DNA of 64,000 nt, from NCBI RefSeq assembly GCF_042231735.1, contig NZ_CP102577.1:2975281-3039280 (forward strand), read 5' to 3'. The notes under the pieces were generated by a model. It saw only the letters and a list, made by a program, of their open reading frames with translations, made no database searches and had not been told where the DNA came from. The DNA comes from Corallococcus exercitus (lineage in GTDB: Bacteria > Myxococcota > Myxococcia > Myxococcales > Myxococcaceae). The position numbers and the translations under genes are program-made. Below, in pieces: positions 30,776 through 30,860 of the stretch (position 1 is the stretch's first letter; the number at the start of each line of letters is the position of its first letter).

Positions 30776-30823
30776 CTTTCGATGCGGAGTCCCGCGTTCG
30801 TCGAACGGTGCCGATCTCTAATC

Positions 30824-30842
30824 GATAACGATTATCATTTTC
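30824..30842. promoter_or_regulatory. Fur-box-like site in an AT-rich intergenic islet
   Basis: GATAACGATTATCATTTTC matches the 19-bp Fur consensus GATAATGATAATCATTATC at 16 of 19 positions. It lies 49 bp upstream of the HmuY-like lipoprotein start in a locally AT-rich stretch (30818..30858). Confidence 0.5.
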
Positions 30843-30860
30843 AATATCGATTCTTCGACT

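Follow-up and report, generated by a model that had tools for sequence, protein, structure and literature searches.

A putative Fur operator ahead of an HmuY-like lipoprotein and metalloprotease gene pair in Corallococcus exercitus

The classical Fur box of Escherichia coli and Bacillus subtilis is a 19-bp AT-rich dyad, which can be read as a set of GATAAT-like hexamers or as overlapping 7-1-7 repeats, and in classical Fur-repressed genes, which respond to iron starvation, it is placed over the promoter from -35 to -10. We analyzed a site of this kind in Corallococcus exercitus, at positions 30824 to 30842 of a 64,000-nt stretch of contig NZ_CP102577.1 (hereafter, the window). It lies ahead of two genes on the minus strand, which encode an HmuY-like lipoprotein (29693 to 30766; 357 amino acids) and a putative metalloprotease (28140 to 29693; 517 amino acids). 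The site has the same kind of dyad as the classical Fur box, and its predicted placement is that of classical Fur-repressed promoters, but the core of the dyad is altered in this lineage, to TGAGAAT-c-GTTATCA, and, in a host genome with 70% GC, the site stands out as an islet.

The gene pair can be compared to several described systems. It resembles the Hmu system of Porphyromonas gingivalis (HmuY plus HmuR) in having an HmuY-fold lipoprotein whose expression is probably tied to iron or heme limitation. In P. gingivalis, gingipains cooperate with HmuY: the protease releases heme for HmuY (PMC12106395). In contrast to P. gingivalis, the Corallococcus locus has no adjacent HmuR-type TonB receptor, the heme ligands His134 and His166 are not conserved, and three disulfides are probably present. 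Also, the protease partner in Corallococcus is a putative zinc metalloprotease from the same operon, while the partner in P. gingivalis is an unlinked cysteine protease. Myxococcus xanthus has a hemin locus (MXAN_1314-1321) that includes an HmuY-family gene (MXAN_1317), with a putative Fur box and the same expression profile as the M. xanthus orthologs of our gene pair. However, MXAN_1314-1321 carries a TonB receptor, HemS, and an ATP-binding cassette (ABC) importer, whereas the Corallococcus locus carries the lipoprotein and the protease only. As for the protease, it is similar to the M30 peptidases hyicolysin and lugdulysin in the fold of its catalytic domain and in having HExxH with a downstream Glu, but it adds a beta-sandwich that resembles the pre-peptidase C-terminal (PPC) domain and a MYXO-CTERM-like tail, and NCBI describes it by a separate family (NF045524).

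The same gene pair is found in M. xanthus as MXAN_6641-MXAN_6640, with the HmuY domain and with a box at the equivalent position (GAATATGAGAATCGTTATC, at L081:5037-5055, where L081 is the M. xanthus locus). The M. xanthus box matches the E. coli consensus at 15 of 19 positions, as compared to 17 of 19 for Corallococcus. The two loci also differ in their surroundings: the upstream neighbor is an ABC transporter in M. xanthus but a homolog of the major vault protein (MVP) in the Corallococcus window, and a type III polyketide synthase (PKS) cluster follows the pair in M. xanthus but not in the Corallococcus window. Furthermore, compared to MXAN_6641, the Corallococcus lipoprotein has an additional 4-Cys module, along with a long TDAGT linker. 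A published supplement tags MXAN_6641 and MXAN_6640 with "Putative Fur box (Altmeyer, 2010)" and mentions the homology to HmuY. This information is second-hand, as the supplement cites a thesis, and Fur pull-downs are also mentioned, again second-hand. In full-text literature searches, we found no main-text mention of MXAN_6641 or MXAN_6640, just supplements; the supplements of a 2024 article in the ISME J contained nothing on either gene. So, the orthologous site in M. xanthus had already been flagged, in the thesis cited by the supplement, and this regulation is expected biology. What is new is the constraint on the operator across the lineage, its predicted placement over the -35 hexamer and the spacer, our structural assignment for the protease, and the status of the pair as a stand-alone cassette.

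Overall, we estimate a probability of roughly 0.78 that a metal-dependent repressor of the Fur family uses the site as its operator, on the promoter of the two-gene operon.

The operator, its promoter, and iron-linked expression

On the plus strand, GATAACGATTATCATTTTC has three mismatches to the E. coli Fur consensus, GATAATGATAATCATTATC, which is the 16-of-19 match that an earlier, sequence-only reading of the window had claimed. Because the lipoprotein, protease, and MVP genes are all on the minus strand, this is the strand on which to read the box, and there its reverse complement, GAAAATGATAATCGTTATC, matches at 17 of 19 positions. When we scanned the 64 kb for sites with up to six mismatches to the consensus, the only hits were this site and its own shifted register. 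This second register, GATATTGAAAATGATAATC (30830 to 30848, minus strand), overlaps the first with a 6-nt shift and matches at 15 of 19 positions. We also shuffled the window 100 times, preserving dinucleotides, and no shuffle had a match at the stringency of this site, so no match is expected by chance. On the gene strand, the two registers together read GATATT GAAAAT GATAAT c GTTATC, or four Fur-type hexamers, so the sequence matches both descriptions of a Fur box, the 19-bp consensus and a set of at least three GATAAT-like hexamers. Reading the Fur box as hexamers reportedly follows the established models of Baichoo and Helmann, from 2002. We infer that the array of four hexamers is large enough for two Fur dimers.

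The site was also said to lie in an AT-rich islet within about 70% GC, and this is correct. The GC content of the window is 0.70, and it drops to 0.38-0.45 at 30790-30879. The islet that contains the operator and the promoter (30801 to 30877) is one of just two stretches in the window where the GC content over 40 nt is 0.40 or less. A perfect 8-nt inverted repeat, AATCGATA / TATCGATT, surrounds the Fur box (30820 to 30852) and extends the palindrome. We considered whether this repeat might be the site of a separate regulator and rejected this: the repeat is kept (as CGATA...TATCG) in Corallococcus loci alone, and it merely lengthens the Fur dyad. A scan of 30500-31100 against Rfam gave no match with E of 1 or less, which argues against a riboswitch or another known RNA at the site.

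We then compared 80 related loci, which we obtained from one-genome-per-species collections. For 22 of these loci, from Corallococcus, Myxococcus, Pyxidicoccus, and Hyalangium, we aligned the upstream regions by anchoring them on the box. The alignment contains a phylogenetically conserved block of 28 nt, ATCGATATTGAAAATGATAATCGTTATC (30824 to 30851, minus strand). The mean pairwise identity among the 22 loci is 0.84-0.87 within this block but 0.25-0.43 in each adjoining block of 28 nt, which is no higher than the random level. The lineage version of the block, ATATTGAAaATGAgAATCGTTATC, is upstream of the HmuY-like gene at every Corallococcus, Myxococcus, and Pyxidicoccus locus and in Hyalangium, and the same box is present in Stigmatella.

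More distant relatives have fewer sites. The ortholog from Sandaracinus is preceded by a palindromic variant that is shifted toward GC, TTGACTTTGAGAACCGTTCTCGA. This variant has seven mismatches to the E. coli consensus and is overlooked if that consensus alone is used for scanning, so we added a scan with the lineage consensus. Fur-like sites also occur in a few metagenome-assembled genomes. Among 56 distant orthologs, 5 have Fur-like sites with five or fewer mismatches to the E. coli consensus, as compared to an expectation of 0.08 from permuted consensus sequences, and 8 match the lineage consensus (2.1 expected). None of 300 permuted consensus sequences reached either enrichment. (We also ran a Gibbs sampler on the upstream regions of the 56 distant loci, but it converged on the GAC/GTC periodicity of coding sequence, and we discarded the result.) Just 6 of the 80 loci, all from Corallococcus, have the MVP gene as the upstream neighbor of the lipoprotein gene, and the box is there regardless of this neighbor; thus, the box belongs to the lipoprotein operon. 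Because the site is kept across genera while its flanks are at the random level, the original call of a Fur box holds up. Judging from these alignments, we take it as demonstrated that the putative operator is under strong purifying selection across the Myxococcaceae and into Archangiaceae and Sandaracinus.

The alignment also suggests where the promoter is. The Fur box overlaps a -35-like hexamer, TTGAAA (30839 to 30844, minus strand), which is invariant in 21 of the 22 loci; Hyalangium has TTGCGA. In C. exercitus, a weak -10-like hexamer, TAGAGA (30815 to 30820, minus strand), is found 18 nt past the putative -35. Across the alignment, the sequence 17-18 nt after the -35 is TAnnnT in Myxococcus (TAGGGT, TACCCT, TATGGT, and others) and TAGAGA or TATGGA in Corallococcus. 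If the promoter is placed correctly, then the Fur dyad extends over the -35 hexamer and all of the spacer, which is the usual layout at Fur-repressed promoters. The overlap of the conserved block with TTGAAA and the spacer points to promoter occlusion. Furthermore, the spacer is conserved base by base, which would be required of an operator but not of a bare promoter. Thus, ATATTGAAaATGAgAATCGTTATC over the predicted -35 and spacer may be viewed as a comparatively validated Fur-type operator for the Myxococcaceae, and it could be the starting point for a model of the Fur regulon in this lineage.

The distance from the operator to the gene depends on which start codon is used. A Shine-Dalgarno sequence, AAAGGTGA (30772 to 30779, minus strand), lies 5 nt before the ATG at 30766 and is present in all Corallococcus loci. 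This ATG is conserved and is the start used by homologs in NCBI (MSNP...). The alternative, GTG at 30775, lies inside the Shine-Dalgarno sequence, so the lipoprotein more likely starts at the ATG. The distance of 49 bp between box and start that was given previously is true for the GTG, but from the end of the box to the ATG it is 57 nt. As an aside, for MXAN_6641 of M. xanthus, the start that was called (L081:5060) is 5 nt past the Fur box and inside the predicted -10 (TATGGT). Either this start is misannotated, and the real one is further on (an ATG at 5085), or the transcript has no leader.

The sequence-only reading had proposed that the operon is repressed by iron. A link of its expression to iron has indirect support from M. 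xanthus, where the orthologs carry the Fur-box tag and their expression rises with that of the hemin and myxochelin genes, both in tan cells and during predation. In four tan strains, MXAN_6641 was up 25-, 103-, 41-, and 7-fold and MXAN_6640 was up 12-, 44-, 14-, and 3-fold (PMC3986340, Table S1). The same list includes the hemin uptake genes MXAN_1316-1321, the myxochelin operon, and the FepA-like MXAN_6911 (PMC3986340). In an independent data set, from predatory co-culture, the log2 increases for MXAN_6641/MXAN_6640 were 2.57/2.47 and 2.38/1.64 (from the supplement with the Fur-box tag). The abundance of MXAN_6641, in fragments per kilobase of transcript per million mapped reads, was 431/547 at t0, 51/56 at 2 h, 29-32 at 6 h, 299-336 at 2 h with prey, and 130-216 at 6 h with prey. 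The corresponding values for MXAN_1317, the canonical hmuY gene, were 3316/3546, 165/260, 91-118, 1062-1150, and 367-614, which is a profile of the same shape. Also, added iron switches off the mxc genes, and the study of the tan strains names two Fur-family genes, MXAN_3702 and MXAN_6967 (PMC3986340). MXAN_3702 has been argued to be of the Fur type, not the PerR type (PMC12754779). These two genes of the cassette are among the most strongly induced "hypothetical" genes when M. xanthus turns on iron acquisition.

The lipoprotein and the protease

The stop codon of the lipoprotein gene overlaps the start codon of the protease gene, ATG at 29693 (TGATG at 29695-29691), in agreement with the earlier claim that the genes overlap and are cotranscribed. 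Across the Myxococcota, 67 of the 80 loci have a match to the protease after the lipoprotein gene, and in most of these it is immediately adjacent. In four annotated neighborhoods that we examined, the pair sits among unrelated genes. There is no TonB receptor or heme-utilization gene beside the pair in the window or in M. xanthus, Sandaracinus, Sorangium, or Stigmatella. The lipoprotein-protease pair is thus a stand-alone cassette that is widespread across the Myxococcota.

The lipoprotein is an ortholog of MXAN_6641. It begins with a signal peptide and Cys, followed by a 4-Cys mini-domain, a linker of TDAGT repeats, and a C-terminal HmuY domain. The N-terminal hydrophobic segment is followed by a Cys that is kept in at least 90% of 60 homologs, as expected for a lipoprotein signal, although the lipobox (APGC) is atypical at position -3. 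The HmuY domain comprises the C-terminal 217 residues (about 141-357) and has six invariant Cys, which probably form three disulfides.

The sequence-only reading had called this protein HmuY-like, and comparison of the C-terminal domain to profiles of the HmuY family upheld this. Residues 217-337 match PF14064 from Pfam with 49.2 bits (E = 8.3e-13), well above the cut-off of 27. The profile of the lipoprotein family matches the PDB chains 8b6a, 8b61, 3u22, 3h8t, and 6eu8 (BfrB, BfrC, Bvu, HmuY, and Tfo). The AlphaFold2 model has a predicted local distance difference test score (pLDDT) of 93.7, and its top 12 matches in the PDB, as found with Foldseek, are all from the HmuY family, with template modeling (TM) scores of up to 0.71. 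The model has the all-beta fold of HmuY, and the best structural match of the C-terminal domain is BfrB.

It is less clear that this protein binds heme. In the alignment of 60 homologs, the myxobacterial HmuY-like family has no invariant His, and the ligands of P. gingivalis HmuY, His134 and His166, are not conserved. The family profile gave no alignment with 3h8t or 3u22 (HmuY and Bvu) across the two finger loops that are expected to hold the axial heme ligands. The candidate ligands are several invariant Tyr and one Met (M303) that is present in at least 90% of the homologs. Members of the HmuY family use His-His, His-Met, or Met-Met pairs as heme ligands, but members that lack ligands are also known. 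BfrB does not coordinate iron when it binds porphyrin, and BfrC does not bind heme or protoporphyrin IX (PMC12106395). Membership in the family is therefore no guarantee of heme binding. Given the lack of an invariant His, the precedent of BfrB and BfrC, and the lack of an adjacent TonB receptor, capture of heme or porphyrin by the lipoprotein, and with it the proposed role in acquiring heme or iron, is plausible but not established.

Within the lipoprotein gene, the low-complexity linker of the TDAGT type is encoded by an imperfect tandem array of an 18-nt unit (30358-30523, about 9.6 copies), and the length of the linker differs widely among species. The 4-Cys module ahead of the linker (CVDAFDCRDQ…CNADQKC) is found, within the alignment, in the closest Corallococcus homologs only.

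The protease had been described as an HEXXH metalloprotease, and comparison to its protein family supports this assignment. It is 100% identical to the Corallococcus exercitus protein in NCBI annotated as "MXAN_6640 family putative metalloprotease," with the same start, and is 57% identical to MXAN_6640 itself. It matches NCBIfam NF045524 (MXAN_6640 family) with 238.7 bits (cut-off of 140; E = 1.1e-70). The zinc site is HEFFH at 183-187, with E203 as the third ligand: H183, E184, H187, and E203 are invariant in 56 homologs. From the N-terminus, a signal peptide leads into the M30-like catalytic domain; next comes the PPC-like beta-sandwich, at residues 339-436 or so, which a disordered linker joins to the MYXO-CTERM-like tail. 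The predicted structure has a pLDDT of 84.5, and its nearest relative is lugdulysin, an M30 zinc peptidase (PDB 7bb8; Foldseek E = 3e-6, TM of 0.52 on the target, 326 columns, and 17% identity). The beta-sandwich that follows the catalytic domain resembles pre-peptidase C-terminal domains and collagen-binding domains. The protein does not belong to M30 by sequence profile: a Pfam scan with E up to 10 gave only DUF5700 (E = 0.44). Thus, the likeness to M30 is at the level of the fold only.

The MYXO-CTERM tag that was previously claimed for the protease is less certain. The tail, DDGGCQTAGG...LLLGGGLRARRRSRAR, has the expected layout of Cys, a hydrophobic segment, and an Arg-rich end, and its Cys (C488) is invariant, but it scores 14.6 bits against TIGR03901, below the cut-off of 20. 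JGI labels homologs of the protease as MYXO-CTERM. The protease is probably secreted and anchored to the cell surface.

Proposed mechanism and competing explanations

If the site is a Fur operator, then under iron sufficiency, dimers of Fe2+-Fur would sit on the GATATT-GAAAAT-GATAAT-c-GTTATC array and block RNA polymerase, and when iron is scarce, Fur would leave and the operon would be transcribed. The TGATG overlap would couple the translation of the two genes, and the products would be an outer-membrane-type lipoprotein with the HmuY fold and a surface zinc protease of the M30-like kind. Together, these proteins might free heme, or iron in another form, from the proteins of prey or of the environment and then capture it. 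The cognate repressor is most probably the ortholog of M. xanthus Fur, MXAN_3702. Several observations weigh against this explanation, however. The expression data from M. xanthus are correlative. Sorangium and most of the 56 distant orthologous loci have no recognizable box. A strict scan of 30500-31200 for the sigma-70 consensus called no promoter, which is why we assigned the promoter from the cross-species alignment. M. xanthus has a second Fur-family gene, MXAN_6967. And the differences between the conserved core, TGAGAATCGTTATCA, and TGATAATnATTATCA are symmetrical, which makes the identity of the cognate protein less than certain.

These last two points raise the issue of whether the site might be a real operator, but for a Fur paralog (the ortholog of MXAN_6967) or for another signal, such as zinc, manganese, peroxide, or heme, so that the link to iron-uptake genes would be indirect. 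Both of the Fur-family genes of M. xanthus are up in tan cells, the operon encodes a zinc enzyme, and the catalase katB is within the same tan-induced set. Relative to the canonical Fur heptamers, the lineage core, TGAGAAT-c-GTTCTCA, has T replaced by G and, symmetrically, A by C; nevertheless, its heptamer is one change from the Fur type, as compared to two from PerR and three from Zur (using the B. subtilis consensus sequences). Also, Zur regulons normally contain genes for sparing zinc or for taking it up, not proteases that require zinc. As expression closely tracks that of the hemin and myxochelin genes, and the published annotation assigns a Fur box, we consider another regulator or signal to be unlikely. 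It is more improbable still that the AT-rich block is merely a promoter (a -35, a spacer, and a UP-like element) whose similarity to a Fur box is a by-product of its AT richness. The block does contain the -35-like TTGAAA, and AT-rich DNA tends to match an AT-rich consensus, but none of the 100 dinucleotide shuffles matched, permuted consensus sequences of the same composition did far worse on the orthologous upstream regions, the spacer of 17-18 nt is conserved base by base, and the orthologs are strongly regulated, not constitutive. Finally, the box begins 16 nt past the stop codon of the MVP gene, so it might be a 3' end or terminator signal for that gene. This seems next to impossible: a scan of 30500-31200 for intrinsic terminators found no terminator-like hairpin, and the box still precedes the HmuY-like gene in genomes that have no MVP gene there. 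We rejected an assignment of the element to the MVP gene, as the comparative data contradict it.

Even if the regulation is as we propose, the lipoprotein need not carry heme. Instead, it might bind another ligand, or it might be a partner or an anchor for the protease or recruit its substrates, in which case the module would be for proteolysis under iron starvation, for instance of the iron proteins of prey or of siderophore-binding proteins. We give this a little less than even odds. It would fit with the lack of an invariant His, which leaves just Tyr and one Met as conserved candidate ligands, and with the failure of the HmuY heme-ligand loops to align. The ligand binding of BfrB, which is the closest structure, and of BfrC is also in line with this. 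The lipoprotein gene is accompanied by a match to the protease in 67 of 80 loci but by no TonB or heme gene in the four annotated neighborhoods, and M. xanthus has a separate, canonical hmuY beside a TonB receptor. Conversely, the HmuY fold is, to our knowledge, known so far only from porphyrin- or heme-binding proteins, the orthologs are coinduced with hemin uptake genes, and with gingipains and HmuY, there is already a case of a protease that supplies a hemophore. A more specific proposal, which we offer tentatively and think is somewhat less probable than a lipoprotein that does not carry heme, is that the pair is an iron-starvation "cut and catch" module of predatory Myxococcota: the cell-surface protease would degrade hemoproteins and iron proteins of prey or of the environment, and the lipoprotein, with a disulfide-stapled HmuY fold and noncanonical Tyr/Met ligands, would capture the heme or porphyrin and hand it over to an unlinked TonB receptor. 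If "cut and catch" is true, then this is a Fur-controlled, protease-coupled hemophore operon, distinct from the HmuY-HmuR arrangement of the Bacteroidota. Should the cassette obtain heme or iron from the proteins of prey, predation and iron nutrition would be connected.

Other genes in the window and at related loci

The gene upstream of the operator (30861-33140, minus strand) encodes the MVP homolog, which has 759 amino acids, with Vault repeats 1-4, the MVP shoulder, and a C-terminal coiled coil. Its stop codon is 16 nt from the -35-like hexamer. The MVP homolog is 93-97% identical among six Corallococcus genomes and is better conserved than its neighbors. Bacterial homologs of MVP, including myxobacterial ones, have been described already (bioRxiv 10.1101/872010).

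At other loci, the pair has various neighbors. In M. xanthus, it is directly upstream of the type III PKS (alkylresorcinol/alkylpyrone) cluster (L081 7875-13635) and has been counted within the alkylpyrone/alkylresorcinol cluster (PMC13454183). Since no PKS is encoded at the corresponding place in the Corallococcus window, the association looks incidental. A gene for a subtilase (Peptidase_S8) is beside the pair in Sandaracinus (L082 6348-7943) and in Sorangium (L083 10976-12592), which may be a coincidence or a looser association. Two Corallococcus genomes have a second Fur-like site with four mismatches, GATATTGATAGTGAATATC / TTGACTTTGATAGTCAGTATCAATATC (L004:8032 and L008:8683). It is about 2 kb downstream of the protease gene and upstream of a gene for a multiheme protein similar to cytochrome c552/NrfA (PF02335, E = 1e-132). 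We also noticed a Myxococcus-type locus in L016 (BNCN01000012.1), which, along with protein P0136, is titled "Comamonas sp. KCTC 72670" or "Comamonas sp. JC664." The Fur box there is the same, and it comes with the HmuY-like gene and a protease of the MXAN_6640 family (56% identity), so the organism name is probably wrong.

The window's only other AT islet contains a small open reading frame (33378-33599, plus strand) and a hairpin. The open reading frame has a Shine-Dalgarno sequence, GGAGGA, and encodes a Cys-rich peptide of 73 amino acids with a signal peptide (…CSASCKPCYSQYDCGQGEGSCGIWRCINP). It is followed at 33625-33654 by a perfect 11-bp hairpin and TTTT, which reads as an intrinsic terminator. 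Further along, 34403-35164 (plus strand) encodes a DUF5953 protein (E = 3e-112). On the other side of the pair, 25302-26918 (minus strand) encodes a protein of 538 amino acids with an N-terminal LysM domain and a C-terminal domain like VgrG3 of the type VI secretion system (PF21277, E = 2e-53), which is plausibly an effector that targets peptidoglycan. The adjoining gene (27109-28143, plus strand) encodes a 344-amino-acid protein that does not match any family in Pfam or NCBIfam. Lastly, 23546-25192 (plus strand) encodes a long aromatic amino acid hydroxylase (548 amino acids) of the PRK14056 type (E = 1.5e-191).

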